Positions 10,630 to 48,340 are shown, counted from the stretch's first letter. The stretch is 64,000 nucleotides of DNA from an uncultured Acidobacteriota bacterium (GCA_963700145.1 OY969474.1:2624001-2688000), one strand, 5' to 3'. Notes: a model not told the origin generated them from the sequence alone. Program-made: numbers and translations.

Positions 10630-11049
10630 TGGGAGCTTCCTCGGCGGCCTCCGGGACCTTCCGGCGGTGCCCGGGGATCTTCCCCCGGCAGCGGAAGATG
10701 TCTCCCCGAGACCGGAGGACAATCCGTCCCACCTCCGGGAACCTCCGCCGGTCCCCGGAGATCCTCCGGCGGCGCCCCGAGATGTTCCGGCAGCACCGGG
10801 AGATGTTCCGGATGCACCAGAAGATCTATCTTTTGCACCAAAAGATACATCTCCAGGCGCGGAAGATGTATCTCCATCTCTCGGAGATATATCTCCAGGG
10901 CCGGGAGATATATCTCCAGCCGCTCGGAATCTATCTCGAGGGCCTGGGAATCTATCTTTTGCACCTGGAGATACATTCCCGGTGCATGCCGGAACATCTC
11001 CAGGCACCGCCGGAACATCTCCAGGCACCGCGGCGGGATCTCCCGGCCG
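10630..11049. repeat. 21-bp-period degenerate tandem array (~20 units) with overall inverted symmetry (array 1)
   Basis: Units such as GGAGATATATCTCCAGGGCCG; perfect 14-bp palindromes at 10883 and 10904; GAGATGTTCCGG (10779, 10800) mirrored by CCGGAACATCTC (10989, 11010) about centre ~10900. Confidence 0.9.
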
Positions 11050-11138
11050 CCGGCGGCCAAAATGGCAGGATCGCGAGACTCCCCGCCCACCTTCCGCCTC
11101 TTACGCCTGCCCGAGGTCTCGCCTGCTAGAGTGTCGGC

Positions 11139-11345
11139 ATGTTCACCACGGTCGAAGCCGAGGTCGACGAGCAGGGGAACATCCGGCCCAAGGAGCCGCT
11201 GACCCTCGCCCCGGGCTCGCGGGTCCTCGTCACGGTGCTGGAACCCGAGGGCGCCGAGGCTTCGCTGCTGAGCGAGGCGGCGCTGGCCGCCGACTGGGGC
11301 CGTCCCGAGGAAGATGCGGCGTGGTCGCACTTGCCTCAGGGCTAG
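11139..11345 (+). CDS. Small antitoxin-like protein (AbrB/AF2212-like N-terminus)
   Basis: 68 aa, TVEAEVDEQGNIR...VLVTVL beta-hairpin pattern, SEAALAADWGRPEEDAAWSHL tail typical of PemK-associated antitoxins; TAGAGT -10 box upstream. Confidence 0.7.
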   Translation: MFTTVEAEVDEQGNIRPKEPLTLAPGSRVLVTVLEPEGAEASLLSEAALAADWGRPEEDAAWSHLPQG

Positions 11346-11377
11346 TAGTCCTAGTCCGGTTTCCCCCCTCGTCCTGA
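11321..11377 (+). pseudogene. Truncated PemK/MazF-type toxin remnant
   Basis: GTG-started VVALASGLVVLVRFPPSS* overlapping the antitoxin end; resembles the G-x-VVLVPFPFSD N-terminus of PemK toxins but stops after 18 codons. Confidence 0.55.
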
Positions 11378-11619
11378 AACGGCGGCCGGCTGTCGTCCTG
11401 GCTCACGCCGGTGGCGGCGATTGGGTTTCTCTGCCAACTCACCCACTCCTGCGAGCAGGAGTGCGGTGAGAGCGCCGTCCGACTGAGGTCTCCTTCGGCG
11501 CGAACTCTCGCCTCACCGCACGCGCCGTATGCAGAGTCGCAGCGGTAGGCACTGAAGAGGATGAAGTGGACGCGCGCGGCGCGCTGCGGAGCCGTTGGCC
11601 ATCATTTACCGATCGAGCG

Positions 11620-12132
11620 CTACACGAGTGCGATTCGCTCGATTTCTTGTCCTTTCTTTAAGCGGAGATAGTTGTTGAGTAGCTGTGTTCCGCCGTTCAC
11701 GAATACATAAGCCAGTAAGGCCGCGAGGAAGCTGTTCACCATTGGCGCGACTGTCTCCTTCACGACCAAAGAATAGGCTTCCACGGGTTGCGGAGGGCAT
11801 TTATCGCATCCCCCCTTAGCCTTCTCATCGAGGTACTTACCATACGCCGTCACCTTCGTGCCGTAGGCTTGGACCATCTGTGTATAGAGGAGAACTTGCT
11901 GCTTGTAGGTATCGACCCGTTGGCTCAATATTGCGGCCGACTCCTGGGGATCGATCCAGGTGACTTCCTTGATCGCCGGCGGCTCCGGCGGTTGTGGCAC
12001 CTCTCTTGGCTGAATTGCCCCGCCTGTGCCGAAAAGTAGACGTGAGCTAGGGATCAGGACTACTAGTGCGATCACGAAGAACCAGAGCAGGAGAACAATG
12101 CGGGCAATTTTCTTGAAAGTTGTTTCGTCCAT
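11620..12132 (-). CDS. Hypothetical two-TM membrane protein in low-GC island
   Basis: N- and C-terminal hydrophobic helices, CDKC motif, AAGGAG RBS, visibly lower GC than flanks. Confidence 0.7.
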   Translation of the reverse strand: MDETTFKKIARIVLLLWFFVIALVVLIPSSRLLFGTGGAIQPREVPQPPEPPAIKEVTWIDPQESAAILSQRVDTYKQQVLLYTQMVQAYGTKVTAYGKYLDEKAKGGCDKCPPQPVEAYSLVVKETVAPMVNSFLAALLAYVFVNGGTQLLNNYLRLKKGQEIERIALV

Positions 12133-12260
12133 AGTCTCTCCTTAGCCTCCTACAAGAGAGACGGACGTGACTCCGAAGTTCCTCCTATCTGTAGAAAACG
12201 GTTGTTCGGCAAACCCGGCGGCGCGCCTGCCCCACCGGCGGTGGTAAAGGCGGCCGCTAG

Positions 12261-12947
12261 CTAGCAGCTCAACAACGGATCGCACCCGCCAGCCGCGCCG
12301 AGGTCGGGGACGACCCAGGTGGCGCCGGCTGCCGCCAGGGCGGCGGCCGGCGTCCGGCCGGTGGCGACGGCGAGGCAGGGGATGCCGTGGGCGCGGGCGC
12401 AGGCGACGTCGTGGACGCTGTCGCCGACGATCAGGGTGTCCTCCGGTGCGAACTCCCGGCCGTGCGCGCGGGCCGCGCGGCCTAGGGCCACCGGCGGCAG
12501 CTCAGCGCGGTCCGCGGAGTCGCAGCCGTAGGCGCCGAAGGGGAAGAAGCGGTTGAGGTCGAAGCGCGCCAGCTTGGCGCGGGCGCCCGGCTCCCAGTTG
12601 CCGGTGAGGAGGCCGAGCGCCGCCTCGTCGGCCCGCCCCGCCAGCTGCTCCAAGAGCTCGACGACCGCCGGCAGCAGGCGCATCCGCTCGCGCGTCAGCC
12701 CGGCGCCCAGCCGCTCGAGGTAGAGCTCGCGGAAGCGCGGCAGGACGGCCTCGACCGCCTCGCGCTCGATGCCGGCGCCGGTCATCAGGTCGAGCACGAT
12801 CTGCGGGTCGGTCTTGCCGACGAAGTCGTAGCCGTCGACGTCGCCCGCGGTGCCGAAGACCTCGACGAGTGCCGCGCCGAAGAGCGGGCGCACCTGCGGC
12901 CCGCAGTCCACCAGCGTGCCGTCGATGTCGAAGAGGACGAGGCGCAT
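12261..12947 (-). CDS. HAD-family hydrolase (phosphoglycolate phosphatase-like)
   Basis: LFDIDGTL, LLTGN, VGDSVHD. Confidence 0.9.
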   Translation of the reverse strand: MRLVLFDIDGTLVDCGPQVRPLFGAALVEVFGTAGDVDGYDFVGKTDPQIVLDLMTGAGIEREAVEAVLPRFRELYLERLGAGLTRERMRLLPAVVELLEQLAGRADEAALGLLTGNWEPGARAKLARFDLNRFFPFGAYGCDSADRAELPPVALGRAARAHGREFAPEDTLIVGDSVHDVACARAHGIPCLAVATGRTPAAALAAAGATWVVPDLGAAGGCDPLLSC

Positions 12948-13015
12948 CCGGCGCTCCCGTAGGCGCGAAGGCTTTCGCGCCGGGCTCCTGAGCCGGCCGC
13001 TATCATAGCGGCCGC

Positions 13016-14143
13016 ATGTCCGCCGACCGGCGCCGGGACTTCTCGCTCGACGACGGGATCGTCTATCTCAACTGCGCCAACCTGGGGCCGATGCCCCGCG
13101 TCGCCGTCGAGGCGACCGAGCGGGCCCTCCATCTCAAGACCAACCCGCACCTGATCGACGACCGCTCCTTCTACGCGGTCCCCGACGACTTCCGGCGCGC
13201 CGTCGCGCAGCTCGTGGGCGCGGCGCCGTCCGACATCGCGGTGACCGACTCGACGACCTTCGGCGTCATGCTGGTGGTCAACGGGCTCGACTGGCGCGCC
13301 GGCGACCAGGTGGCGATCACGGCCCGCAACTTCCCCGCCAACCGCTTCCCCTGGCAATGGCTGGAGCGGCGCGGCGTCGAGGTCGTCGAGGTGCCCGACG
13401 ACCCCGAGGTCCCGGAGGTCGAGCGCTTCGCCGCCGCCCTGACGCCGCGCACGCGCGTCGTGTCGCTGGAGTGGGTGAGCTACCGCACGGGGGCGCGGCG
13501 CGACCTCGCCGGCGTCGGCGCGCTCTGCCGCGAGCGCGGCGTCCTCTTCGTGGTGGACGGCACGCAGGGGGTCGGCGGCCTGCACTTCGACTTCGCCGCC
13601 ACGCCCTGCGACCTCCTCGTCTGCTCGAGCTACAAGTGGCTGCTGGGGCCGGTCGGCGTCGGCTTCGCCTACGTGCCGCCGGCGACGGCCGAGCGCCTGG
13701 TGCCGCACAACGTCAACTGGTTCCGCGTCGCCGGCGCCGAGGACTTCAGCCGCCTCGCCGAGTGCGAGCTGGAGCTGGTGCCGGGCGCCACCCGCTTCGA
13801 CAAGAACGCCCCCGCCAGCTTCTTCGACCTCGCCGGCGCCATCGCCAGCGCCGACTACCTGGCCGAGGTCACGCCGCGCGCCGTCGAGGAGCACGTCCGC
13901 GGCCTCCTCGACCGGCTCGTCGCCGGGCTGCCCGAGGGCTACCGCGTGCTGGGGTCGCTCCAGCCCGAGCGGCGGTCGAACATTTTGTGCTTCGCGGCGG
14001 CGACGCCGGAGGCGACGCGCGCGGCGTACGAGCGGCTGCGGGCGGCGGGGGTGATCGTCAGCCTGCGCGACGGGGGGATCCGGGTGTCGCCGGGGATCTA
14101 CAACACAGAAGGGGAGATCGAGCGACTACTCCAACTCCTCTAG
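13016..14143 (+). CDS. Class V PLP aminotransferase (cysteine desulfurase/lyase-like)
   Basis: YLNCANLGP, VDGTQGVG, SSYKWLLGPVGVG (PLP lysine), IRVSPGIYNT. Confidence 0.9.
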   Translation: MSADRRRDFSLDDGIVYLNCANLGPMPRVAVEATERALHLKTNPHLIDDRSFYAVPDDFRRAVAQLVGAAPSDIAVTDSTTFGVMLVVNGLDWRAGDQVAITARNFPANRFPWQWLERRGVEVVEVPDDPEVPEVERFAAALTPRTRVVSLEWVSYRTGARRDLAGVGALCRERGVLFVVDGTQGVGGLHFDFAATPCDLLVCSSYKWLLGPVGVGFAYVPPATAERLVPHNVNWFRVAGAEDFSRLAECELELVPGATRFDKNAPASFFDLAGAIASADYLAEVTPRAVEEHVRGLLDRLVAGLPEGYRVLGSLQPERRSNILCFAAATPEATRAAYERLRAAGVIVSLRDGGIRVSPGIYNTEGEIERLLQLL

Positions 14144-14207
14144 CAGTACCTCGACCACTCTGCGGCCTGGTTCAGACCAGTCCAAGCGAAAGATGTCTAC
14201 CTAAGCA

Positions 14208-14969
14208 TTAAGCGGGCTCCTCCTCTCTTGAAGCCTCTCTCCCCGAAAGTTCTCTCTGGATCATGTTGAGAACCTCGACAGCGATTCGCGCTTCCTCCCT
14301 CCCGAGGCCAAGACCAGACCTGATCTCGTAACCAGGATGTACAAGATTCCGATATTCACGGACAGAATGAGATAGCTTCTCCGCTCCCACCGGGACTAAC
14401 CCAAGCTCAATACCCACGTTGATTAATTCGGAGATAGTCCACTTAGTGATTTCGGCAGCTGCCTTGCGCGCGGCCGTTGTTGTCTTTGCAGCGGCCGAAT
14501 TTTGAAGGGCAAGGTCAAGCAAACAGGCCTCGATCGCACTACCAGCCAAGATAATGACAGCCTTCCAACACTCTGCCACGAAAGCTCTCTGGATCTCCGG
14601 GTAATCTCTGTCCAAAAGCCTACGAAGACCAGTGTCCCTTACGAAGGAGAAGTCCCGCTCTTCAGTGATAGGGCTACTATCCGATTCCGGAATTTCAGCC
14701 CGTAGCCGCGCGAGTACTCTACCCAGATACATCGACAAAGCACGCGCAGAATAGCCGCCAAATGAGACGAAGGCGTCCCGGTCACAGGAAGGTACCAAGA
14801 ACGGAAAAAGCTCCCTGGCGCTTTCGACCTCATCCATTATCTGACTGAAGACATCCCCATCAACGTAGCTATGCGTACCGAGACGAGCATCGAGGAAGTT
14901 TTTCTGTTCCGCTAATGTGCTACCGAACAGGCGAAGTGACTTCAGTTCCCGCCGTTGGTCAAGTTTCAC
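14208..14969 (-). CDS. Hypothetical low-GC protein with HEPN-like C-terminal domain
   Basis: KAVIILAGSAIEACL helix and REYRNLVHP (RNxxH) motif; lower GC than neighbours. Confidence 0.65.
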   Translation of the reverse strand: MKLDQRRELKSLRLFGSTLAEQKNFLDARLGTHSYVDGDVFSQIMDEVESARELFPFLVPSCDRDAFVSFGGYSARALSMYLGRVLARLRAEIPESDSSPITEERDFSFVRDTGLRRLLDRDYPEIQRAFVAECWKAVIILAGSAIEACLLDLALQNSAAAKTTTAARKAAAEITKWTISELINVGIELGLVPVGAEKLSHSVREYRNLVHPGYEIRSGLGLGREEARIAVEVLNMIQRELSGREASREEEPA

Positions 14970-14978
14970 ATTCCCTCC

Positions 14979-15785
14979 TCACTCCCGCCAGCGGGGCGGT
15001 TGTTTGGTCTCGAGGAACGTGGCGATGCCGCGCTTGCAGTCCTCCGTCGCACGGGCGGCGGCGTTGGCTTCGGCGGCTAGGGCGAGGGCTTGGTCGAGGG
15101 GCTTGCCGAGGACTTCCAGGAGCAACCGCTTGGTGCGGGCGATCGACTCCGAGCTGGCGTTGGCGAGGATTTCCGCCGCCAGCTCGTCGCCCGCCGCGGC
15201 CAGGCGTTCGCCGGGCACCACGCGGTTGACCAGGCCGATCTCCAGCGCCCGCGACGCCGGCAGGGGGCGCGGGAAGAGGAGCAGCTCGCGCAGGTCGGAG
15301 CCGCGGACGCGCAGCGGCAGGAAGGTGGCGACGAGCGCCGCGACGAAGCCGATCCGCACTTCGCTGTAGAGAAAGGTCGCGGTCTCGGCGGCGACGACGA
15401 AGTCGTGCGCGGTGGCGAGGCCGCAGCCGCCGGCGACGCAGGCGCCGTGGACGAGGGCGATCGTCAGCGCCTCCTGCCGCAGCACCGCGTCGAAGAGGTC
15501 GCGCACGCGGCGGGAGTCGGCGAGGTTCTCCTCCGGGCCGGCGTCGCGCAGCGCGCGCAGGTGGTCGAGGTCGGCGCCGGCCGAGAAGTGCCGGCCGGCG
15601 CCCGAGAGCAGCACCGCCCGCACCCCGTCCTCGCGCAGCGGCCGCCGATAGAGGTCGGTCAGCTCCGCGACCATGGGCGGCGAGAGCGCGTTGGCGCGAC
15701 GCGGGTCGTTGAGCGTGACGCGCAGGAGGTCGCCGTCCTGCCGCACCTCCAGCGCCTCCCAGCGCGCCTCGGCGAGCGCGCTCAT
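14979..15785 (-). CDS. Enoyl-CoA hydratase/isomerase (methylglutaconyl-CoA hydratase-like)
   Basis: FSAGADL, AGGCGL, YSEVRIG crotonase motifs. Confidence 0.9.
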   Translation of the reverse strand: MSALAEARWEALEVRQDGDLLRVTLNDPRRANALSPPMVAELTDLYRRPLREDGVRAVLLSGAGRHFSAGADLDHLRALRDAGPEENLADSRRVRDLFDAVLRQEALTIALVHGACVAGGCGLATAHDFVVAAETATFLYSEVRIGFVAALVATFLPLRVRGSDLRELLLFPRPLPASRALEIGLVNRVVPGERLAAAGDELAAEILANASSESIARTKRLLLEVLGKPLDQALALAAEANAAARATEDCKRGIATFLETKQPPRWRE

Positions 15786-16129
15786 CCCTCCTCCTCCTCC
15801 GGCGGCACCAGCTCGTCCGGCAGCTCGACCTCCATCGCCAGGAGGCCCTGGGCGTGCGTCTTCCCCTGGGCGTCGGTCTTCAAGCTCTCGGTGCCGCCGC
15901 CGCCGAGGGAGTCGTGGAGGAGGAAGTTGAGGGCCAGGAGGTTCGGCACCTCGAAGCGCTCGACCCGGCCGCGGCAGACCTCGCGGAAGTGCTCGCGGAC
16001 GCGCTCCGCCGTCACCTCGCGGCGCAGCACCTCGTAGACCTTCGGGTCGAAAGCGATGAGGCCGACGTTCGAGGCGTCTCCCTTGTCCCCCGAGCGGGCG
16101 AGGGCGACGCGGCGCAGCGCGACCTTCAC
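15782..16129 (-). CDS. AtuA-related small protein (stand-alone AtuA C-terminal domain)
   Basis: ARSGDKGDASNVG, LGGGGTESLKTDAQGK. Confidence 0.85.
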   Translation of the reverse strand: MKVALRRVALARSGDKGDASNVGLIAFDPKVYEVLRREVTAERVREHFREVCRGRVERFEVPNLLALNFLLHDSLGGGGTESLKTDAQGKTHAQGLLAMEVELPDELVPPEEEEG

Positions 16130-16440
16130 GCGCCCACCCCGAAGACGGCGCGCACGCCGAGGTCGAGGTCCTCGCGGTGGACGGCCGCGAGCCCGGCGAA
16201 GGCCGCCAGGCCCACCGCGGCGAGGAGGGCGAGGCTCCCCCACCGGCGCCGCGGCTCCCAGCCGGCCTCGATCCCCTGCCGTAGCAGGACCGTCCAGAGG
16301 AGCGCGAAGGCGAGAGCCCAGCCGACGAAGACGATGCGGTCGGCGACGGCGCTGGCCAAAAAGCCGAGCAGCAGGATGGGGAGGAGGCCGCCCAGGAGCG
16401 GCGCGTACCAGCGGGCGACGAGCCCGCCGCCCGCCGTCAC
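16126..16440 (-). CDS. Small three-TM membrane protein
   Basis: GTGA overlaps at both ends; three hydrophobic segments. Confidence 0.65.
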   Translation of the reverse strand: MTAGGGLVARWYAPLLGGLLPILLLGFLASAVADRIVFVGWALAFALLWTVLLRQGIEAGWEPRRRWGSLALLAAVGLAAFAGLAAVHREDLDLGVRAVFGVGA

Positions 16441-17804: not shown

Positions 17805-17865
17805 GCGCGAGGGAGCGTAGCAGAGCGCGCCGCGGGCGCCGCCCGCTAGACTACGCGCCGTCCCG

Positions 17866-20645: not shown

Positions 20646-20654
20646 GCCGCGAGG

Positions 20655-21476: not shown

Positions 21477-21525
21477 CGGCGGAGAGGCTAGCACCGGCCC
21501 GGCGCCGCTGCGCTACGCTGCGCGG

Positions 21526-22893: not shown

Positions 22894-22908
22894 GGAACGA
22901 GCGCCCAA

Positions 22909-22914
22909 TATAAT
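22909..22914 (+). promoter_or_regulatory. Consensus -10 box 7 nt upstream of ATG (leaderless promoter)
   Basis: TATAAT-TGGCCGG-ATG with no SD; one of many such TANNNT boxes in the window. Confidence 0.6.
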
Positions 22915-22921
22915 TGGCCGG

Positions 22922-35263: not shown

Positions 35264-35383
35264 CCAGGCTCTCCTGCGACGAACACCCCCGCCGCCGGGC
35301 GGCGAGGGACACTCATTGTAACCCTCACCGCCCCAGCGCACCTTCCCCGGGAACGCCCTGGTGTTGCGCCCGCTGTACGAGGG

Positions 35384-36541
35384 TTAAGGCGACCCGCCTG
35401 TAGCGCTCAGAATTGGTGCCGTTTCCCAAATGGATCCCATGCGGAGGCAGAAGTGGCCCACCTTTGCCACGGCGAGGATGTCGTCGCCATCGGGAGCGTC
35501 CTTTGTACCCTTCACGTTCCATAGTACCCAGAGGCCGATGTGGGCTGGGATGAGGTCCTTCGGGATTCGCTCGTCGCGCTTGAACATGAACGTCAGAAAG
35601 TCGGCGACTGCCTCGCGTAGGAGTGGATTTTCCTCCCTTAGCAGACGATCGACTGCATCCACCATACCTGCGCTGTCTCGCTCTCGAGTGGTTGCGAGGC
35701 CGATGCTCGCAGCTGTAAGGCACAGGCGCCAGACGTCCAGCCGACTGAAGACCCACTGGGGTGGGGAGTCAGCGTCGACGAGATCGAGCGCCGATGCCGT
35801 GACGCCAGCCTCAACGGCGCCGATGAGACGTTGAGCTCGCTCCGTTGGCTGGACGGGCGAGATCTTGCCCGCTGCCTCCATGGACTGCAGCCGCCTCCCA
35901 GTGACCTGACGTCGAACCGTCCGGCCTGAGGATGAAGGCAATTCGAGCTCGACTCGCTTGCCGAAGAGACGGTCCCAGAGATTGACAGAGAGCTTGGTCG
36001 AGTTCTCCAACAGCGTTCGGAGATCGGCCGATGAGCGGTGGCGCCAGCCGTCCACTCGATCGTTGGCCGTCTTCTGCCAATCGGAAAGAGCTTGTGCAAT
36101 CTTGCTTCTGAGGTCGTCTGGGTTATCTACTTCGTGCAGGACATATGTCTCACGATGCTTCCTCCGCCACTCCGATACCCATGGATCAGCTGCCAACTTA
36201 CTTTGGGGTTCAGCAGTATGGAATATAAATATGGGTATTCTGGCTTTCTTCGCTGTCTCATATTCAAGAGATGTGAACGATGAGTCCTCTAGTCCTGCCA
36301 GCCTTGGCGTCGATCCGCGAGAGGAGGAAACTACAAGAATGCACGCATCCGCATCGTTTACCCTCGACTTGCAGATCTCTACAACCTGCTCATCGCTGAG
36401 ATCCGTAAGCGGCTCAAGAACGTCTGCTTCCATACCCACTGCCGCAATTGCAAGCGCAGCTGCTTGACGAAACGGCAGTAGGTCCCGGATAGTAGAGGCG
36501 ACGAAGATCTTCTTGGTCCTAACCTTTGTATCGTGTGTCAT
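35384..36541 (-). CDS. DUF4062-domain protein with unknown C-terminal region (low-GC island)
   Basis: KIFVASTIRDL..R, C...V..AD, SFTSLEYETA..IPIFIF match the DUF4062 (NDT/TIR-like) pattern. Confidence 0.7.
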   Translation of the reverse strand: MTHDTKVRTKKIFVASTIRDLLPFRQAAALAIAAVGMEADVLEPLTDLSDEQVVEICKSRVNDADACILVVSSSRGSTPRLAGLEDSSFTSLEYETAKKARIPIFIFHTAEPQSKLAADPWVSEWRRKHRETYVLHEVDNPDDLRSKIAQALSDWQKTANDRVDGWRHRSSADLRTLLENSTKLSVNLWDRLFGKRVELELPSSSGRTVRRQVTGRRLQSMEAAGKISPVQPTERAQRLIGAVEAGVTASALDLVDADSPPQWVFSRLDVWRLCLTAASIGLATTRERDSAGMVDAVDRLLREENPLLREAVADFLTFMFKRDERIPKDLIPAHIGLWVLWNVKGTKDAPDGDDILAVAKVGHFCLRMGSIWETAPILSATGGSP

Positions 36542-36619
36542 ATCTCTTGCCTCGGCCAACCTCTGTTCCGAGGACTCGCCGCGGCTTGCGTATCGCGGCA
36601 TAGGCGACAGGTGTATGTC

Positions 36620-36683
36620 GTCTATGCTCCGACGCCTGACCGCCCCCGAACCTCCGTGGATGTGGCTTCTCAGCTAGTTAGAC
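36620..36683 (-). other. Degenerate attC-like site
   Basis: Minus strand GTCTAAC-TAGCT-GAGAAGCC ... GGCGTC-GGAG-CATAGAC; good R'' box, poor R' box. Confidence 0.3.
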
Positions 36684-36830
36684 ACTATAACAGGGTGTCC
36701 CCGAGGATCTGGAGGTCCCCGAGCTGCTGAGAGCGCGGCGGGACCTGCCTCGCGGCCGCCTTGGGGCGGCGGGCGCGGCGGGAGTGGAAGCGGGAGCGGG
36801 TGCGGTTGATCGGCCGCACACCGGAGCGGC

Positions 36831-37271
36831 CGAATGGAGTGGGTCGGCAGGCGAATGGACCGGGTTGACAGCTCAATGGACTGGGTTGACGGCCGAACCG
36901 GGTGGGTTGGCGGCTGAATGGACTGGGTCGGCGGACGATTGGGCTGGGTTGGCCGCCGAATGGACTGGGTCGGCGGGCGAACCGAGTGGGTTGGCGACCG
37001 AATGGACTGGGTCGGCGGCCGATTGGGCTGGGTTGACCGTCGAATGGACTGGGTTGGCGGACGAACCGAGTGGGTCGAGCCGCCGACCCATCCCAATGGG
37101 CCGCCGACCCAGTCCATTCGGTCGCCAACCCAGCCCAATCGCCGCTCGAATCACGCCAATGGCGCGCTGACCCACTCCAATCGCCGGCCGACCCAGCCGG
37201 TCGACCCGCCTACCCAGCCCATCGGTCGCCTGACCCACACGATCCACCGGCCGACCCACTCAGTTCGCAGC
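36831..37271. repeat. 21-bp-period tandem array, 12 forward + 9 inverted units (array 2)
   Basis: Consensus CGAATGGACTGGGTCGGCGGC with an 84-bp super-period, switching at ~37080 to reverse-complement units such as CCGACCCAGTCCATTCG. Confidence 0.92.
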
Positions 37272-37294
37272 GCGCCGGAGCGAGAGCTCTACGT

Positions 37295-37372
37295 GCTTAA
37301 CACCGATCCCGCCGCCGACACGCCGATCAGCGCCCCGGGCTGAATGCCGGAACGGCAAGTGCCGAGTTAGAC
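37295..37372 (-). other. attC-like integron recombination site (78 bp)
   Basis: Minus strand GTCTAAC (R'', contains the ORF stop) TCGGC ACTTGCCG ... CGGCGGGA TCGGT GTTAAGC (R'). Confidence 0.55.
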
Positions 37373-37744
37373 GCCGGTTCGGAGCGACTGGATTGCTTGG
37401 CGAGTTCTTGCCCAATCGCCGCTTCGCAGGAAGAGGAGGTGAACGAAACCAAGCCGAAATCTGAACCGCCGTCTCATGCGATTCATGATCTTTTCCTCGA
37501 GCCAACCTTGATCGAAGCCAGCCCACTCACCAGCTACGGAGAGGAGATTCCAGCTGCAGATAGGACAGACCTCGTAGACCAGAATCCGTTCCAATTCGAC
37601 GATCGAGTATGGAGAAGCTGCGAGGGTCTTGGCGCGATACTCAAGATCCAAGGAAGCATCGGTGTCGAGAAACAAGGTCGAGAGCGCAGTCCAGACAGGA
37701 CGTCGAACTTCGATCTCCGCAGCCGACAGAGGCTCTGGATTCAT
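37367..37744 (-). CDS. Hypothetical cassette-like protein (DUF7079-like)
   Basis: RRPVWTALSTLFLDT...EVCPICSWNLLSVAGEWAGFD; ATG 7 nt after GTTAGAC and stop inside GTCTAAC. Confidence 0.75.
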   Translation of the reverse strand: MNPEPLSAAEIEVRRPVWTALSTLFLDTDASLDLEYRAKTLAASPYSIVELERILVYEVCPICSWNLLSVAGEWAGFDQGWLEEKIMNRMRRRFRFRLGFVHLLFLRSGDWARTRQAIQSLRTGV

Positions 37745-37753
37745 GGTCGGCGT

Positions 37754-38353
37754 CTAACGTTCAGCATCAGCGGCGGCGCCGCGATGTCCTCGCACCTCGT
37801 AACGAAGCTCCACCATGCCGCTTTTGTAGGCTTTGACCTCCGCCAGGTGGAGGGGGATGTCTCTGTCGAGCTTCTCGAAGAACGGGATCCCATCACCAAT
37901 CAAGATCGGCAGGATCGAATAGCGAACTTCGTCGGCCAGCCCGAGGCGAAGGCACTCGGCGGAGACGACGCCGCCCCCAACAAACCAGATGGTGCGGAAC
38001 GTGGGCCGTAGGCGCCCATTCACGAATTGCGCGAGATCGCCTGAGTGGAACTCGACGGTATCCCGGGTCCGTGGTAGTTCGCGACGAGTGAGGACGAAGG
38101 TGGGTTTGTCGCCGTACGACCACCCCAGCCCTTGGGCTTCAAAGCGAAGCGCGGTCTCATAGGTTCGCGATCCCATGACGTAGCAGTCGATCGTCTTGAG
38201 GAACGCCTCGACGAAGCCTGGGTCCATTGTGTCCCCGCCTACGAATTCGTCTGAGGTCTCGAGCCAGTCGACGCGCCCGTCCTTTCGAGCGATGAAGCCG
38301 TCGAGGCTCGCCGCCATGTGGATCGTTACGCGAGAGTCAGGGATTGCCACCAC
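37754..38353 (-). CDS. Dihydrofolate reductase-like / RibD C-terminal domain protein
   Basis: MAASLDGFIA, MGSRTYE, WFVGGG, LADE, PILIGDGIPFF. Confidence 0.88.
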   Translation of the reverse strand: MVAIPDSRVTIHMAASLDGFIARKDGRVDWLETSDEFVGGDTMDPGFVEAFLKTIDCYVMGSRTYETALRFEAQGLGWSYGDKPTFVLTRRELPRTRDTVEFHSGDLAQFVNGRLRPTFRTIWFVGGGVVSAECLRLGLADEVRYSILPILIGDGIPFFEKLDRDIPLHLAEVKAYKSGMVELRYEVRGHRGAAADAER

Positions 38354-38765: not shown

Positions 38766-38827
38766 TGGTGGTTCTCCCGACGCCTGACCTCTGTTTCGAC
38801 GACTCGCCGCGGCAGATAGAGTACGCC

Positions 38828-39532: not shown

Positions 39533-39556
39533 CAAGAGGCCCCCCCTTTTGTCACC
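39528..39556. terminator. Stem-loop between lipoprotein gene and sulfate operon
   Basis: GGTGACAAGAGG...CCTTTTGTCACC inverted repeat over the stop codon; no clear U-tract. Confidence 0.4.
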
Positions 39557-39601
39557 GCCCTACGACTGACCCCGTCACCGGCGGCTCCCTAGAGTTCCCG
39601 G

Positions 39602-41383: not shown

Positions 41384-41395
41384 AAGGTGGGAGAC

Positions 41396-42670
41396 ATGAA
41401 AGCACTCGTTCTCGCCCTCGGGCTCGCCCTCACCTTGGTCGCCGCCCCGGCGGCCGCACAGGAGAGCGCCGAGCCGGCCAAGCCGCAACCCCCCGTGATC
41501 ACGGCCGGGAAAGACGGCTTCAGCCTGAAGTCCGCCGACGGCGCCTTCGTCCTCCGGTTGCGCGGTTACGTCCACGCCGACGGCCGCTTCTGGCTCGGCG
41601 ACGACGAGCGCCCGGCGACCGACACCTTCCTGCTGCGCCGCCTGCGGCCGATCTTCGAGGGGACGCTCTACGAGTTCGTCGACTTCCGCATCATGCCGGA
41701 CTTCGGCGAAGGGCAGACGCGGCTCTTCGACGGCTACATCGAGGCCCGCTTCACACCCGCCGCGAAGCTGCGCGCCGGCAAGTTCAAGCCGCCGGTGGGG
41801 CTCGAGCGGCTGCAGTCGGCGACCGACATCGTCTTCGTCGAGCGCGCGCTGCCGAGCAACCTCGTCCCCAACCGCGACGTCGGCGTGCAGCTCGCGGGGG
41901 ACCTCGCGGCGGGGCGGCTGGCCTACGCCGTGGGCCTCTTCAACGGTGTGCCCGACGGCGCCAGCGCCGACCTCGACAGCAACGACTCCAAGGACGTCGC
42001 CGCCCGCCTCTTCGCGACGCCGTTCGCAAAGGCGGAGGGGCCGCTCAAAGGGCTGGGCTTCGGCCTCGCCGCGAGCCGCGGCAACCAGCGCGGCACGGCC
42101 GCCGCGCCCGCCCTCCCGAGCTACCGCACGCAGGGCCAGCAGACTTTCTTCGGCTATCGGACGGACGGCGTCGCGTCGGGCGGCCCGACCCTCGCCGACG
42201 GCGCGCGCGAGCGTCTCTCGCCGCAGGGCTACCTCTACCGCGGGCCGCTCGGCCTGATGGCCGAGCACGTCCGCTCGTCGCAGGAGGTGCGGCGCGGGAC
42301 GACGCAGGCGGAGCTGACCCACGACGCCTGGCAGCTCGCGGCCTCCTGGGTGCTCACCGGCGAGGACGCCTCCTACCGCGGCGTGACGCCGCGCGCGCCG
42401 TTCGATCGCGAGACGGGCGCCTGGGGCGCCGTCGAGCTGGTCGCCCGCTTGAGCGCCCTCGACGTCGACGACGACGCCTTCCCGTTCTTCGCCGACCCTG
42501 CCGCCGCCGCCAGCGAGGCCACGGCCTGGGGGGTGGGCGTCAACTGGTACCTCGCCCGCGGCATACGGCTCGGCGCGAACTACGAGACCACCAGCTTCGA
42601 GGGCGGCGCCCCGACGGGCGACCGCGAAGACGAGCGGGTCCTCCTCACCCGCCTGCAGATCAACTTCTAG
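41396..42670 (+). CDS. OprO/OprP-family anion-selective porin
   Basis: Signal peptide, [36 protein letters not shown], terminal F. Confidence 0.85.
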
Positions 42671-42684
42671 GAAGGAGAGCCGCC

Positions 42685-43716
42685 ATGCGCCACCACAACC
42701 TCGCCGGCATCCTCTGCGCTCTCTCCCTGGGCCTTGCCGCGGCCGTGCCGCCGGCCTTCGCGGCTCCCGCGCCCAAAGCTCCGGCCAAGGTCGAGCTGCT
42801 CAACGTCTCCTACGACCCGACGCGCGAGCTCTACACCGACTTCAACGCCGCCTTCGCTCGGCGCTGGAAGGCGAAGACCGGCCAGACCGTCACCGTCCAG
42901 CAGTCGCACGGCGGCTCGGGCAAGCAGGGGCGGTCGGTCATCGACGGCCTCGAGGCCGACGTCGTCACCCTCGCCCTCTCCTGGGACGTCGACGCCGTCG
43001 CCAACGCCGGGCTCGTGCCCAAGAGCTGGCAGGCGCGCCTCCCCAACAACAGCGCCCCCTACACCTCGACGATCGTCTTCCTGGTGCGCCAGGGGAACCC
43101 GAAGAAGATCCGCGACTGGGGGGACTTGGGGCGCCCGGGCGTGGCGGTCGTCACGCCCAACCCCAAGACCTCCGGCGGCGCGCGCTGGAACTACCTCGCC
43201 GCCTGGGGCTGGGCGCTGCGCCAGCCGGGGGGGAACGATGCCAAGGCGCGCGCCCTCGTCGCCCGCATCTTCAAGAACGTGCCGGTGCTCGACACCGGCG
43301 CCCGCGGCTCGACCGTCACCTTCGTCGAGCGCGGCATCGGCGACGTGCTGATCGCCTGGGAGAACGAGGCGCTGCTGGCGGCGCGCGAGCTGGGCAAGGG
43401 GAAGTTCCAGATCGTGGCGCCGTCGCGGTCGATCCTCGCCGAGCCGCCGGTCGCGTGGGTGGACAAGGTGGTGCGCAAGAAGAAGACCGGCGCCGTCGCC
43501 CAAGCCTACCTGCGGCACCTCTACACCCCCGAGGGGCAGGAGATCGCCGCCCGCCACTACTACCGGCCGCGCAACAAGGCCGTGCTGGCGAAGCACGCCG
43601 CGAAGTTCCCCAAGATCGAGCTCTTCACGATCGGCGACTTCGGCGGCTGGGCCAAGGCGCAGAAGACCCACTTCGCCGACGGCGGGGTGTTCGACCAGAT
43701 CTACGGCGGGCGCTAG
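42685..43716 (+). CDS. sbp: Sulfate ABC transporter substrate-binding protein
   Basis: [51 protein letters not shown]. Confidence 0.95.
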
Positions 43717-44580
43717 GTGGCGGCAGCCGCGCGTCCCCGCCGCCGCCGCACGCACGGCGTCCTGCCGGGCTTCGGCCTGTCGCTGGGGTTCACGCTGCTC
43801 TACCTGTCGCTGATCGTCCTGATCCCGCTGTCGACGCTCTTTCTCAAGACCCTGACGCTCTCCTGGGACGAGTTCTGGTCGACCGTCACCGCGCCGCGCA
43901 CGCTCGCCGCCTACCGCCTCTCCTTCCTGGCGGCGGGCGCCGCCGCGGTCGTCAACGGCGTCTTCGGCCTGCTCCTCGCCTGGGTGCTCGAGCGCTACAC
44001 GTTTCCCGGCCGGCGGCTGCTGGACGGCTTGGTGGATCTCCCCTTCGCCTTGCCCACGGCAGTCGCCGGCATTTCCCTCGCCTCACTCTGGGCCAAGAAC
44101 GGCTGGCTGGGCCGCTGGGTCGAGCCCTTCGGGATCGAGGTCGCCTACACGCCGCTCGGCGTCGTCGTGGCGCTGGTCTTCGTCGGGCTCCCCTTCGTCG
44201 TGCGCACCGTGCAGCCGGTCCTGCGCGACCTCGACCCGGCGGTCGAGGAGGCCGCGGCGAGCCTTGGCGCCGGGCGGCTGGCGACGCTGCGGCGGGTGGT
44301 GCTGCCGGAGCTGCGGCCGGCGGCGGTGACCGGCAGCGTCCTCGCCTTCGCCCGCGGCTTGGGCGAGTACGGCTCGGTCATCTTCATCGCCGGCAACATG
44401 CCGATGCGCTCGGAGATCACGCCGCTGCTCATCATGATCGAGCTCGAGCAGTACGACTACGCCGGCGCCACCGCGATCGCCCTGCTCTTCCTCCTCGCCT
44501 CCTTCGCCCTGCTCCTCGGCCTCAACTTCCTCTCCCGCTGGCAGGCGCGCGCGCACACGGCCGTCGAGGAGGAGCGGTAG
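43717..44580 (+). CDS. cysT: Sulfate ABC transporter permease CysT
   Basis: [44 protein letters not shown]. Confidence 0.93.
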
Positions 44581-44582
44581 AG

Positions 44583-45419
44583 ATGGCGGCCGCGGCGCCG
44601 GCGCGCGTGCGGCCGCTCGAGGAGCCGCGCCTCGTCCGCTGGCTCCTCCTGACGCTCGCGCTCGCCTTCGTCGGCCTCTTCCTCCTCGTGCCGCTCGTCG
44701 CCGTCTTCGTCGAGGCCTTCGCCGAGGGCTGGGCGGTCTACCGCGCCGCGGTGACCGACCCGATCGCCCGCGCCGCGATCCGCCTGACGCTCACGACCGC
44801 CGCCATCGCGGTGCCGGCGAACCTCCTCTTCGGCCTCGCGGCGGCCTGGGCGGTGAGCAAGTTCCGCTTCCGCGGCAAGGGCCTGCTGGTGACGCTGATC
44901 GACCTGCCGTTCAGCGTCTCGCCGGTCATCTCCGGCATGATGTTCGTCCTCCTCTTCGGCGCCCAGGGCTTCCTCGGCCCCTGGCTCGCGGCGCACGACT
45001 GGAAGGTTATCTTCGCCCTCCCCGGGATCGTCCTCGCCACCGTCTTCATCACCGCGCCGCTGGTGGCGCGCGAGCTGATCCCGCTGATGCAGGCTCAAGG
45101 CAGCGAGGAGGAGGAGGCCGCGCTCACCCTCGGCGCCAGCGGCTGGCAGACCTTCCGCCGCGTCAGCCTGCCGAAGATTCGCTGGGGCCTCATCTACGGC
45201 GTGGTGCTGTGCAACGCGCGGGCGATGGGGGAGTTCGGGGCGGTGTCGGTCGTCTCGGGGCACATCCGCGGGCGCACGACGACCCTGCCGCTGCACGTCG
45301 AGATCCTCTACAACGAGTACCAGTTCGCCGCCGCCTTCGCGGCCGCCTCGCTGCTGACGCTGCTCGCGCTCCTCACCCTCGGGGTCAAGGCCCTGGTGGA
45401 GTGGCGTACGGCCCGGTAG
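44583..45419 (+). CDS. cysW: Sulfate ABC transporter permease CysW
   Basis: [43 protein letters not shown]. Confidence 0.93.
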
Positions 45420-45431
45420 TACAGTGCCCGG

Positions 45432-46583
45432 ATGCGCTGGTTCGGGAGGAGGGAGCGCGAGCCGGACGAGGAGATGGAGCGCCGTCTCCTCGCCACGACG
45501 GCGGAGCTGCGCCGCCGGCAGGCGGAGACCGACGCCGTGCTCGGCGGCATCGTCGAGGGGGTCTACTCGGTCGACCGCGACCGCCGCGTCCGGTACCTCA
45601 ACCCGCAGGCGGCGGAGCTCCTCGGCGTCACCCGGGAGGAGGCGCTCGGCCGTTTCTGCGGCGACCTCCTGAACCCGCAGGGCCCGGACGGCGTCCGCCC
45701 CTGCGAGACGAGCTGCCCGATCGTCCACGCGCGCTCGCGCGGCAGCTCGCGCGCCACCGAGCAGCTCCTGCTGCCCGGCGGCGGCCGGCGCACCGTCGTC
45801 CTGACCAGCGCGCCGCCGGCCGAAGGCAGGCAGGTGCAGGTGCTGCGCGACGAGACGGAGGTCGAGGCCAGCCGCCGCCAGCGCGACGCCGTCCTCGCCA
45901 ACATCTCGCACGAGTTCAAGACCCCGCTCGCCGCCCAGCTCGCCTCGATCGAGCTGCTGCGCGACAGCCTGGAGGCCGGTGACGGCGCCGGCAGCCGCCA
46001 GCTCGTCACCGCGCTGGCGCGCGGCACGCTGCGGTTGACACGGCTAGTGGACAACCTGCTCGAGAGCGTGCGCATCGAGGCCGGCCAGGACGCCCTGCGC
46101 CTGCGGCCCGTGGCGGTCGACCAGGTCGTCGAGGAGGCGGTCGAGCTGACGGCGCCGCTGCTCGAGCAGCGCGGCCAGCGGCTCGCGGTCGAGCTCCCCT
46201 TCCCGCTGCCGCGGGTGCAGGCCGACCCGCCGCGTCTGGTCCAGGTCTTCGTCAACCTCCTCGCCAACGCCAACAAGTTCGCGCCCGCCGAGTCGACGGT
46301 GCGGATCGGCGGCGAAGCGACCGACGGCACGGTGACGCTTTGGGTGGAGGACGAGGGGCCGGGGGTGCCGGCGCCGGCGGAGGGCTCGATCTTCGACCGC
46401 TTCTACCGCGCCGGCGGCGAGCCGGAGCAGACCGGCTTGGGGCTCGGGCTCTGGATCGTCAAGTCGATCGTTGAGCGGCACGGCGGCCAAGTCGCCGCCG
46501 CGAGCGGCGGCCGCGAGGGGCGCGGCGCCCGCCTCTGCGTCACCCTGCGGCGAGCGGCGGACGATGAAGATCCTGGTCGTTGA
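45432..46583 (+). CDS. Cytoplasmic PAS histidine kinase
   Basis: PAS with C-x14-C-x3-CP, SHEFKTPL, NLLANANKF, DEGPG, GLGLGL; no TM segment. Confidence 0.9.
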   Translation: MRWFGRREREPDEEMERRLLATTAELRRRQAETDAVLGGIVEGVYSVDRDRRVRYLNPQAAELLGVTREEALGRFCGDLLNPQGPDGVRPCETSCPIVHARSRGSSRATEQLLLPGGGRRTVVLTSAPPAEGRQVQVLRDETEVEASRRQRDAVLANISHEFKTPLAAQLASIELLRDSLEAGDGAGSRQLVTALARGTLRLTRLVDNLLESVRIEAGQDALRLRPVAVDQVVEEAVELTAPLLEQRGQRLAVELPFPLPRVQADPPRLVQVFVNLLANANKFAPAESTVRIGGEATDGTVTLWVEDEGPGVPAPAEGSIFDRFYRAGGEPEQTGLGLGLWIVKSIVERHGGQVAAASGGREGRGARLCVTLRRAADDEDPGR

Positions 46584-47271
46584 CGACGACCTCGACCTGC
46601 TGGGGCTGGTGTCCTACGCGCTGCGGCAGGGCGGCTACCTGACGGTCGAGGCGGTGGACGGCGAGGCCGCCCTCGCCGCCTGGGAGCGCGAGCGCCCCGA
46701 CCTGGTGATCCTCGACGTCAACCTGCCGAAGCTCTCCGGCTTCGCCGTCCTCGAGCGGCTGCGGGCGAAGTCGCGCGTGCCGGTCATGATGCTCACCGTG
46801 CGGGCGGCGGAGGAGGACGTCGTGCGCGGCCTCGACCTGGGCGCCGACGACTACCTGGCCAAGCCCTTCAGCCCGCGGACGCTGCTGGCCCGGGTGCGGG
46901 CGCTGCTGCGGCGGGTGGGAGTCGAGAAGCCCGGCGAGCTGGCGGCAGGGGACCTGGCGCTCGACCAGGAGCAGCACTTGGTACGGGTGCGCGGCGGACA
47001 AGCGGTGCGCCTGACGCCGTTGGAGGCGCGTCTCCTCCAACTCCTCCTAGCCAACGCCGGCCGCGCCCTCCCCGCCGAGCGCCTCCTGTCCCACGTCTGG
47101 GGCCGCCGCGGCGAAGGCGACCGCCAGCTCCTCAAACAGCTCGTCCACCGGCTGCGGCAGAAGATCGAAGAGAACCCCGCGGCACCGCGGTATCTGCAGA
47201 CGGAAAGCGGGGTCGGGTACCGGCTGGAGCCTGGGTCTCCGTCATCCTCGAACTCGGGACTACCGCGATGA
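46564..47271 (+). CDS. OmpR-family response regulator
   Basis: ILVVDDD, LDVNLP, GADDYLAKPF, RLRQKIE, GVGY. Confidence 0.93.
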   Translation: MKILVVDDDLDLLGLVSYALRQGGYLTVEAVDGEAALAAWERERPDLVILDVNLPKLSGFAVLERLRAKSRVPVMMLTVRAAEEDVVRGLDLGADDYLAKPFSPRTLLARVRALLRRVGVEKPGELAAGDLALDQEQHLVRVRGGQAVRLTPLEARLLQLLLANAGRALPAERLLSHVWGRRGEGDRQLLKQLVHRLRQKIEENPAAPRYLQTESGVGYRLEPGSPSSSNSGLPR

Positions 47272-47738
47272 AGCCGAGGGTCTACGTAGAAACCAGCGTG
47301 ATCAGCTACCTGGCGGCGATGCCGAGCCGTGACGTCGTCACCTTGGCGCATCAGCAGCTCACGTTCGAATGGTGGTCAGAGAGCGGCCGCTTCGATCTCT
47401 ACGTCTCGGACGCAGTTCTCGCCGAAGCTGCGCGCGGCGATCCTGCAGCTGCGGCACGCCGCGTCGCGGTGCTTCAGGATCTCCCGGTACTCGAGGTGAC
47501 ACGAGAGGTGTCGGAGCTCGCCGGTCGATTTCTGAATGCCGGTGTGCTGCCTGCGGCGGCCTTGGTGGACGCGGTTCACGTCGCCGCTGCCGTCGTCCAC
47601 GGAATGGACTACCTGCTGACCTGGAACTGCGCGCACATTGCCAACGCTGCGGTTCGTGCTAGCTTGGAAAGAGCGTGCCGGGAATACGGTTTCGAGCCGC
47701 CGATCATCTGCACGCCCGAGGAGCTCACGGAGGGCTGA
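47268..47738 (+). CDS. PIN-domain (VapC-like) toxin
   Basis: VYVETSVISY, DAVHVAAA, LLTWNCAHIAN, ICTPEEL. Confidence 0.88.
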   Translation: MKPRVYVETSVISYLAAMPSRDVVTLAHQQLTFEWWSESGRFDLYVSDAVLAEAARGDPAAAARRVAVLQDLPVLEVTREVSELAGRFLNAGVLPAAALVDAVHVAAAVVHGMDYLLTWNCAHIANAAVRASLERACREYGFEPPIICTPEELTEG

Positions 47739-47741
47739 CGC

Positions 47742-47927
47742 ATGGAGCGAGATCCGATCGTCGAGGAAGTGCGCGCGATTCGAGACGCCTTCGCGCGCGA
47801 GCACGGCTACGATCTGGAGTCGATCGTGACCGCCCTCCAGGAGGAGCGCGCGAAGAGCGGACGCCAGGCTATTTCCCTGCCGCCAAAGCGACTGCAGAAG
47901 ACCAAGGCCGAGCGCAAGGCCGGCTGA
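47742..47927 (+). CDS. Small PIN-associated protein (putative antitoxin, downstream of toxin)
   Basis: 61 aa, DPIVEEVRAIR...HGYDL pattern typical of partners of this PIN subfamily. Confidence 0.7.
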   Translation: MERDPIVEEVRAIRDAFAREHGYDLESIVTALQEERAKSGRQAISLPPKRLQKTKAERKAG

Positions 47928-47944
47928 CGCGACCGAAGAATGCC

Positions 47945-48340
47945 CCGAGCGGGTTGCCGGGAAGAGCCTCGGAGCAAGCGTCCGACACGCTCCGTCAAAC
48001 GGGAAAACGTCCGAGACAAGTGGGAATCAGGCCGGTACGAGCGGGAATCGTAAAAGTACGCGGTACCGCAGGCCGAGGCAAACGGGAGTTGTAAAAGTAC
48101 GTCTGTACCGAAGCCTGGGGCAAGCGGGAATCGTAAAAGTACGGCGTCCTTTCCCGATTCCCGCTTGTACCGAGCGTTTCCCCTCTTGTACGGAGCATTT
48201 TACCGCTTGCACGGGGCGTGAGTCCGTTCGTCCCCGGCCTTTTCCCCTTTGCACCGGCCGTGCGGGCGTTTGACAGGAGCCTTGGCCCGTTTGCTCCGGG
48301 CCTGCGGACGATCGTCCCGCGCCGCGGGGCGCTTGCTCTA
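47945..48340. repeat. 21/42-bp-period degenerate array with inverted second half (array 3)
   Basis: CAAGCG/CAAACG/CAAGTG/CGAGCG at 47975, 47996, 48017, 48038; CGGGARTYGTAAAAGTACG x3 at 41-42 bp spacing; CAAGCGGGAATCG (48121) mirrored by CGATTCCCGCTTG (48155), then inverted 21-bp units. Confidence 0.8.

Follow-up and report, generated by a model that had tools for sequence, protein, structure and literature searches.

Helically phased 20/21-bp repeat arrays in intergenic DNA of an uncultured Acidobacteriota bacterium and their placement upstream of A141 genes

A 64,000-nucleotide stretch from an uncultured Acidobacteriota bacterium (GCA_963700145.1, OY969474.1:2624001-2688000), here called the window and numbered from its first base, contains three intergenic elements, E1, E2 and E3, each composed of degenerate tandem units of about 21 bp. 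We report that they belong to a genome-wide population of about 110 arrays with a period of 20 or 21 bp, and that arrays of this design lie upstream of all 16 genes of an uncharacterised protein family termed A141. Neither this placement nor the genome-wide census formed part of the original prediction, which was made from the window alone and described a family of three fold-back elements. The genome under study (G000) is a single contig of 5.46 Mb with 71.5% G+C and an estimated completeness of 95%. It was compared with the independent assembly of a sister species (G004), with a member of another genus (G006) and with a member of another family (G025), and array counts for these three genomes come from 400-kb samples.

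Periodic arrays in the window and across the genome

Tandem Repeats Finder (TRF), inverted-repeat searches and folding of single-stranded DNA (ssDNA) agree with the earlier proposal that 21-bp-period arrays with fold-back potential occur at all three sites. The conserved body of E1 (10745..11057, no strand assigned) holds ~15 units of 21 bp around the core GGAGATATATCTCC. Its left-hand units read GGAGATGTTCCGG and its right-hand units CCGGAACATCTCC, with orientation flipping near 10890, and TRF returned period-21 rows across 10735-11031. The decayed left extension (10630..10744, likewise without strand) adds ~5 degenerate 21-bp units (GGGAnCTTCC-like) that keep the register, so that a printout at 21 bp per line is in strict register through ~20 units. 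The span first given for E1, 10630-11049, stands with respect to register, but conservation is confined to 10745-11057. E2 begins with a left arm (36826..37077, + strand) of 12 forward 21-bp units of CGAATGGACTGGGTCGGCGGC type with an 84-bp higher-order period, followed after 6 nt by a right arm (37084..37267, - strand) of ~9 reversed units; printed at 21 bp per line, it reads as 12 forward and then 9 reversed units. The inverted-repeat arms extend over 184 nt and are 71% complementary. TRF placed 11.4 copies of period 21 at 36826-37065 (73%), a period of 84 over 36826-37075 (86% matches, score 367) and a further row at 37079-37238. In E3, the left arm (47945..48143, + strand) consists of degenerate 21/42-bp units (CAAGCGGGAATCGTAAAAGTAC) that are best kept beside the centre, and the right arm (48145..48340, - strand) of reversed units of GTACTTTT..CCCGCTTG type that decay outwards, with TRF rows at 48028-48143 (period 42) and 48161-48214 (period 21). 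Inverted-repeat arms measure 58 nt (81%) in E1 and 71 nt (72%) in E3, which has in addition a central pair of 23 nt (87%).

Folded as ssDNA and compared with 100 dinucleotide shuffles each, E2 reached -174.2 kcal/mol against -103.2 in the shuffles (z -16.2), E1 (10735-11057) -103.7 against -57.2 (z -12.3) and E3 -107.9 against -81.1 (z -5.8), and none of the 100 shuffles matched the native fold in any of the three cases. E3 is clearly the weakest element and falls short of the strict threshold applied to the whole genome below. Promoter and terminator scans of E1 and E3 gave nothing above shuffled sequence, and Rfam returned no match within the window.

The arrays might have been products of misassembly, a possibility raised with the original prediction. 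The orthologous sites of E2 and E3 in the independently assembled sister species are occupied by arrays 95% and 89% identical, respectively, and these two elements are therefore not assembly artefacts. The left arm of E2 has the same number of units in both species; the right arm in the sister species carries one 17-bp deletion, and the segment just past the arm (37262-37364) is also missing. A short-read contig from run X1 agrees with 35972-36904 without a single difference. Four short-read DNA runs yielded only short contigs ending at or near arrays, so the arrays matter for short-read assembly as places where contigs break.

Self-identity was scanned at every lag from 10 to 45 over the whole contig, the genome-wide autocorrelation that the original prediction had called for, and lag 21 was strongly enriched over control lags. 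Only lags 20 and 21 and their doubles stood out: with a required self-identity of at least 0.60 in 147-bp windows, 98 loci were found at lag 21 and 16 at lag 20, compared with three to six at lags 18, 24 and 27 and one at each of lags 19, 22 and 23. The sole locus at these last three lags is a run of ~400 G outside the window (G000:C1:2348003-2348438), which scores at every lag; its place in the sister species is a 57-bp gap, compared with 2.8 kb in the genome under study, and the run may be an assembly or masking artefact. Merging overlapping loci and dropping the poly-G run left 109 arrays with periods of 20 or 21 bp. Their median length is 306 bp (5th-95th percentile 208-491) and their sum 34.9 kb. 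The density is ~1 array per 50 kb, to which the three elements in the 64-kb window come close.

Relative to genes called with a home-made codon-usage caller (4081 genes, 83.6% of the genome), 107 of the 109 arrays are intergenic. The neighbouring genes are in tandem for 48, convergent for 32 and divergent for 27, and in many cases the array takes up the entire intergenic space. Array orientation shows no bias with respect to the neighbouring genes. Cumulative GC skew along this contig is nearly monotonic (minimum at 28 kb, maximum at 5.29 Mb) with no visible origin or terminus signal, and the inferred direction is followed by only 47% of called genes. One of the two arrays inside called genes (G000:C1:2336421-2336864, 21-bp period, CTGCTGCCG.CCAGCTC type) is kept in the sister species (G004:C53:7792-8318) within a 4.9-kb block of 89% identity; it is probably a true coding repeat outside the element class.

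The notion of a family of three gives way to 109 arrays in at least nine sequence clusters. Single linkage of the consensus units of 86 lag-21 arrays at 15 or more matches out of 21 produced clusters of 47, 18, 6, 5, 3, 3, 2, 1 and 1 members. The 47-array cluster suggests, and only suggests, that all cores share an origin, since ~5 chance links are expected at this threshold. E1 and E2 fall in the two largest clusters. The three window sequences are unrelated to each other, as originally noted, but none is unique: E1 has relatives at nine loci in the genome, E2 at 11, two of them full-length fold-backs with 74-76% identity, and E3 in one array. Nor is folding back the defining trait. When array halves were compared over 111 loci, a count that includes the poly-G run twice, 69 were plain direct repeats, 20 were ambiguous owing to a palindromic unit, 15 were weak fold-backs and seven were clear ones. 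Unit-by-unit traces revealed a few more orientation switches, placed off-centre; ~7-12 arrays in all are fold-backs.

An array typically comprises ~10-20 units, each with a core of 10-14 bp and a variable spacer. Among the 101 arrays with at least six good units, 40 have a nearly invariant core, the divergence of their units being significantly gathered in 7-11 positions of the spacer (p<0.01). Most cores are dyad-symmetric, among them GGAAGCTTCC, GGAGATATATCTCC, CGGATGTATCCG, GGTATC..GATACC and CACGACCGTCGTG, and they are almost confined to arrays: GGAAGCTTCC occurs 79 times inside and eight times outside, with 13 occurrences expected genome-wide. At many loci the best TRF period is 42, 63, 84 or 105 bp, and in E1 and its copies identity drops from the centre towards the edges.

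The A141 gene family and turnover of arrays among genomes

Clustering of open reading frames within 2 kb of arrays revealed a family of ~130-140 residues, A141, beside 12 arrays with 12 different cores. All 11 loci found with tblastn lie 0-72 bp from an array, which is always on the 5' side of the gene. A hidden Markov model built from 12 paralogues found 16 A141 genes in the genome, and every one has an array upstream, 14 of these being strict-list arrays within 110 bp and two being TRF arrays at 27 and 167 bp. A conserved ribosome-binding site and start codon follow the array. The best-kept copies of the module begin with genes for a small secreted protein and a zinc-finger/TPR protein; next come a divergent Cro/C1-type helix-turn-helix (HTH) gene, a small gene, the array, A141 and three further genes. 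The families of E1 and E2 include arrays linked to A141; E1, E2 and E3 themselves are orphans.

The module proteins A141, F16, F7, F4 and F6 matched no family in Pfam, NCBIfam or PADLOC, matches being limited to the HTH and TPR parts. The structural model of A141 predicts two helices, one over residues 6-23 and one over 28-87, and a disordered tail that is basic and rich in Pro and Thr; the mean predicted local distance difference test score is 80. The model has no PDB match at E<=0.001, is not recognised as a ribbon-helix-helix or HTH protein, and in an Atlas search A141 retrieved only unnamed Acidobacteriota clusters. A141 was considered as the reader of the cores and set aside as unlikely because protein identity is uncorrelated with array similarity (Spearman 0.14, Mantel p 0.15).

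Within the taxonomic family, 17 of 18 further genomes encode A141, compared with none of 12 genomes from the other families of the order. Taking the two best loci per genome outside the genome under study, an upstream array was found at 9/10 A141 loci of the genus and, across five other genera, at 9/19 loci, the periods being 20, 21, 41 and 61 bp; the corresponding downstream control gave 0/10 and 3/19. At loci L113, L130 (G011) and L126 (G006), all in other genera, an array of 20-bp period with self-identity of 0.74-0.79 lies 300-1000 bp downstream of the A141 homologue and not upstream of it. A sigma-70-like promoter is found between the array and A141 at two loci of another genus, matching at 11/12 and 9/12 positions.

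A phased triple of GGAAGCTTCC occurs 33 times in the genome under study, and the four further genomes of the genus have 4-37 occurrences each, with exact 21-bp phasing and differing spacers in all five; it was absent from the single sister-genus genome and from 200 other genomes of the class. The 400-kb samples contain nine lag-21 arrays in the sister species, none in the other genus, where one array was seen at lag 20, and only coding repeats in the other family.

Comparison of orthologous loci, as the original prediction proposed, showed that the sites of E2 and E3 are occupied in the sister species and that the site of E1 carries an array of a different family, with homology of the orthologous flank stopping at ~10612. 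E1-like copies instead occupy two non-orthologous sites there, at 85-86% identity over 280-313 bp. Identity among the aligned copies peaks in the A+T-richer centre and falls to both edges, reaching ~45% in the decayed extension of E1. Six of the nine arrays sampled in the sister species lie at or inside segments that differ from the genome under study, and most of the ~65 variable segments in the same 400 kb contain no array. One fold-back family, with core CGGAACCTCCTGCGC, was aligned in full: its eight copies are 84-91% identical and ragged at both ends. The left edge of every copy retains the end of a small upstream gene, if only its final codons, and in three of the eight the right edge retains the ribosome-binding site and the start of A141 as well. 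No transposon-type terminal repeat or target duplication was seen in the aligned copies.

Accessory DNA near the arrays

Each of the three elements had been described as abutting accessory DNA. Beside E1, a small gene of 68 aa (11139..11345, + strand) begins 82 bp downstream, outside the array; its match to an AF2212-like antitoxin is weak (E 0.036, under the family cut-off), and the proposed PemK-like remnant found no support. To the left of E2, in a low-GC island, lies a DUF4062 gene (35384..36601, - strand; Pfam E 2.3e-11), and to its right a DUF7079 gene (37367..37744, - strand; Pfam E 9.7e-31), the first of several small low-GC genes; Pfam also confirmed RibD_C next to E2. A PIN-domain toxin gene (47280..47621, + strand) ends 324 bp left of E3 and scores 25.4 bits against a Pfam cut-off of 23.6. 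Of the neighbours originally named, DUF4062 beside E2 and a PIN gene beside E3 are thus in place, and that of E1 is reduced to the weak antitoxin match.

Junctions between the small low-GC genes around E2 carry GTTAGAC / GTCTAAC motifs (36672-36700, 37297-37373 and 37745-37760), with a stop codon inside the motif at one junction. The segment missing from the sister species (37262-37364, 103 bp) ends exactly on one GTTAGAC, and the region looks cassette-like.

Across the genome, the association with accessory DNA holds statistically, for a minority of arrays. Flanks below 63% G+C were found at 24/109 arrays compared with 114/2090 control intergenic regions (Mann-Whitney p 1e-10), and an array was found no more than 2 kb away from 15 of 48 PIN-domain genes compared with 11.5% of all called genes (p 2e-4). 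Insertion sequences are found within 2 kb of arrays in 7/25 IS256-like and 5/9 IS3-like cases, and some split an array. The adjacency to accessory DNA is accordingly commoner than chance, as had been proposed, but most arrays lack a toxin-antitoxin neighbour and only 12/110 have a PIN gene within 1.5 kb.

The IS256-family (Mutator) transposase occurs at 25 loci (e.g. G000:C1:1826612-1827901), and the element has been recently active, since 21 of the 25 copies share 99-100% protein identity. An IS3-like element (118+281 aa) is present in five identical copies; for four of these an array lies within 800 bp, and at least two copies interrupt an array. At G000:C1:2562900-2570700, two E1-family arrays enclose 7.8 kb of DNA inserted relative to G001, which has a single array at this place; the cargo comprises a TIR-domain protein, DUF429, an SDH-type protease and an IS1-like transposase. 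An IS1-like transposase beside one E1-family array was considered as an enzyme acting on the array and rejected as belonging to an ordinary insertion sequence. At G000:C1:4669500-4671300, duplicated pieces of the genes on both sides (~55 and ~140 bp) flank an array and a VapBC-like pair, an arrangement resembling the outcome of insertion by a duplicative, template-switch-like event.

Proposed docking DNA, rival explanations and known systems

We tentatively favour, with slightly less than even confidence, the reading that the arrays belong to the A141 operon as docking DNA for protein, phased along one face of the helix, that E1, E2 and E3 are orphan copies and that fold-backs are secondary. 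The periods encountered (20, 21, 20+21 and 20+20+21 bp) all correspond to 10.0-10.5 bp per helical turn, and codons are therefore not their cause. The core/spacer anatomy, the lack of orientation bias and the position upstream of a promoter argue for dyad sites that would act at the DNA level on one face. The home of the design would be directly upstream of A141 and its operon. With all cores on one helix face, dimers of a sequence-specific protein would sit side by side and could wrap or stiffen 200-450 bp upstream of the promoter; protein binding, the identity of the protein, wrapping and the way in which arrays are copied are inferences. The arrays would evolve in a satellite-like manner through slippage or unequal exchange, giving higher-order repeats and decayed edges. 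Whole arrays, together with ragged pieces of flank, would have been copied into ~90 other intergenic places in this genus, preferentially at fast-changing spots that also gather toxin-antitoxin pairs, cassettes and insertion sequences, and a fold-back would arise by inverted duplication of part of a direct array. The earlier argument that one design in unrelated sequences points to a shared function or mechanism is supported by the present data.

Several observations weigh against docking. No binding protein for the cores was identified, and the neighbouring HTH gene has an array within 2 kb at only 6 of its 9 loci; nine or more core clusters would need many specificities, and A141 paralogues 70-77% identical carry unrelated arrays. 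The 32 arrays between convergent genes have no promoter to serve. In this genus the array stops 0-72 bp ahead of the A141 start, and no sigma-70-like promoter was found there at the locus examined. Ten of the 19 A141 loci from other genera, a census limited to the two best loci per genome, have no upstream array above threshold. Finally, core-dependent copying could equally maintain the cores without any host function.

The last point leads to the main rival, in which the arrays are selfish or neutral satellite-like DNA that grows by slippage and is copied through array-triggered template switching or break repair, with the A141 site as the oldest or most permissive and with intact palindromes amplifying. 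We regard this as possible but doubtful, although it explains the orphans, the ragged ends and the bloom in one genus as well as docking does, or better. Orphans are abundant in one genus: the phased GGAAGCTTCC triple is found in all five of its genomes and is absent from the sister genus and the rest of the class sampled, and the sister species has nine arrays in 400 kb where the more distant genomes have no non-coding lag-21 arrays. Higher-order periods of 42, 63 and 84 bp with decayed edges, the position of 6/9 sampled arrays at or inside variable segments, copies with ragged ends and no evident target duplication or terminal repeat, enrichment beside low-GC DNA, PIN genes and insertion sequences, cores that occur almost only within arrays and the many convergent placements all fit such DNA. 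Selection for the design is nevertheless favoured, because the array upstream of A141, retained across at least six genera while its sequence has been replaced, is hard to explain otherwise. The period is held at two helical turns even where 20- and 21-bp units are mixed, cores stay exact while spacers randomise, and orthologous arrays are as stable as their flanks, E2 being an example.

The remaining explanations fare less well. An RNA-level element, be it a transcribed multi-hairpin or long-hairpin RNA, a processed repeat RNA acting with A141 as in systems that pair an array with an effector, or an intercistronic stability or processing signal, appears quite unlikely. The array of the full module must be transcribed because it sits between co-directional genes, and the single strands of E1-E3 and of the eight-copy family give much better folds than their shuffles. 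Against this, the units show no preferred orientation towards the genes next to them, most arrays are orphans distant from A141, A141 similarity does not track array similarity, the window has no Rfam match, the genome encodes no Nop-domain protein, and at two loci of another genus the promoter lies downstream of the array. The covariation check suggested earlier gave no support either: in a consensus fold of ten copies of one fold-back family, double changes affect 3/116 pairs with a covariation term of +2.8, on little variation. That fold-back arrays serve as recombination sites, oversized attC-like or structure-specific sites bounding mobile cassettes, seems very unlikely to us. In several comparisons with the sister species, homology breaks within ~25 bp of an array edge with other DNA beyond; E2 lies amid small low-GC genes with GTTAGAC/GTCTAAC junctions, at one of which the 103-bp gap ends; insertion sequences lie in or beside arrays at the frequencies given above; and, read by eye, the aligned fold-back family has a stop codon within GCGTAAC and two ends that can pair. 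AAC...GTT-type ends were seen by eye in that one fold-back family only. Against this reading, the 69 direct loci of 111 cannot form a site hairpin. attC sites are imperfect palindromes of ~60-140 bp with R''/L''-L'/R' boxes, as opposed to the 200-490 bp of the arrays. A search for an integron integrase (TIGR02249) found none over the cut-off in the genome, the best hit being a 125-aa open-frame fragment at 137 bits versus 265, and most of the ~65 variable segments lack an array.

Coding heptad repeats, with seven codons per unit, or an assembly artefact are extremely improbable. A 21-bp unit does equal seven codons, and open frames cross many arrays, several of them in frame with A141. Such frames are, however, what chance alone would give at 71% G+C. 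The period is 20 bp in 16 arrays here and 20, 41 or 61 bp in other genera, and the seven codons noted in the original prediction are not the reason for the period. Together with the intergenic position of 107/109 arrays by codon usage, the orientation switches within arrays and the ribosome-binding site and start codon conserved after them, this contradicts the protein-coding alternative. The orthologous copies in independent assemblies and the X1 contig, identical over 35972-36904, speak against an artefact.

A broader proposal, which we consider unlikely, is that array and A141 form an undescribed chromosomal system of one Acidobacteriota family. In it, an array of two-turn repeats, variable in sequence but fixed in geometry, would seed the assembly of a wrapped complex, either nucleoprotein or RNA-protein, together with A141, with its coiled coil and basic tail, and the other products of its operon. 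The ~90 orphans of this genus would then be additional loading or titration sites and, as such, dispersed landmarks with an architectural or insulating role where mobile DNA begins. If docking holds, dispersed one-face binding platforms would make up ~0.6% of the genome and nearly 4% of the DNA between genes, and the arrays would constitute a chromosome landmark at the edges of fast-changing regions of a kind not described in the literature searched. If the arrays are instead selfish, they would represent rare prokaryotic satellite-type DNA with higher-order repeats and family turnover, spread without a transposase. The 16 natural array-gene pairs per genome, with different cores and the same geometry, offer a handle on the core reader and on the two-turn period.

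No description of such arrays, in Acidobacteriota or elsewhere, was found in the literature searched, a body that excludes most subscription journals. CRISPR arrays have identical repeats with unique spacers of similar length; here the variable part measures 7-11 nt and the spacers, decayed versions of one another, are related from one unit to the next, the period is 20/21 bp and TRF units span the whole of it, in keeping with the original judgement that these are not CRISPRs. TIGR-Tas systems combine a Nop-domain Tas protein with an 18/36-nt period, as against 20/21 bp here, and the Tas/Nop profile (PF01798) had no match in the genome. In the part of a 2026 preprint on mined periodic intergenic arrays that was available, bands are given at 60-79, 18, 5 and 10 nt, with none mentioned at 20-21. 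The CRISPR, TIGR and VIPR periods of 60-79, 18 and 5 differ from 20/21, and ~110 dispersed arrays here face 16 partner genes.

REP/BIME/REPIN and SMAG elements are described as short intergenic palindromes, with several families per genome, that serve as insertion-sequence targets (PMC3116915, PMC3733652, PMC2613905). The arrays resemble them in their palindromic intergenic units, their several families and, in part, head-to-tail clustering. They differ in a strict helical phase of 20/21 bp, in contrast to 20-40-bp hairpins at loose spacing, in being mostly direct with 10-20 units and in their tie to a specific downstream gene family. The RAYT (Y1 transposase) profile PF01797 had no match in this 95% complete genome and matched 6/14 reference genomes as a control, which agrees with the earlier exclusion of REPs. 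Neisseria dRS3 repeats are reportedly 20-bp dyads (ATTCCC-N8-GGGAAT) that form intergenic mosaics by variable genes and act as integration sites; they are said to flank segments of 50-150 bp rather than to form contiguous phased arrays, and they belong to a different phylum. We know of no A141-like partner for dRS3. Satellites and minisatellites show higher-order repeats and homogenised centres, and eukaryotic foldback elements have arms of tandem repeats. The periods of 42, 63 and 84 bp, the decayed edges and the turnover of families with period kept are shared with satellites. The present arrays, however, are prokaryotic, 200-490 bp long, built on a two-turn unit with constrained cores and without a transposase between arms.

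The closest likeness is to plasmid centromeres and iterons (R1 parC-ParR, F sopC-SopB, tubC-TubR and the iterons of theta plasmids), which are phased short repeats, often dyads, upstream of their own operon. Their binding proteins are small dimers that bind cooperatively into a wrapped complex, and paralogous systems share the design but not the sequence. The differences are that the arrays described here are chromosomal, number ~110 per genome, lie mostly far from the partner gene and hold 10-20 units compared with 3-12; no ParA-, ParM-, TubZ- or Rep-type partner was detected among the module proteins. The likeness lies in phased tandem repeats directly upstream of an operon, at 16/16 A141 genes in this genome and 9/19 A141 loci in other genera. 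In R1 parC, two sets of five repeated iterons are bound by ParR (PMC2241845). By analogy, the array architecture matches that of centromere and iteron arrays, its layout being that of iteron, centromere and operator arrays.

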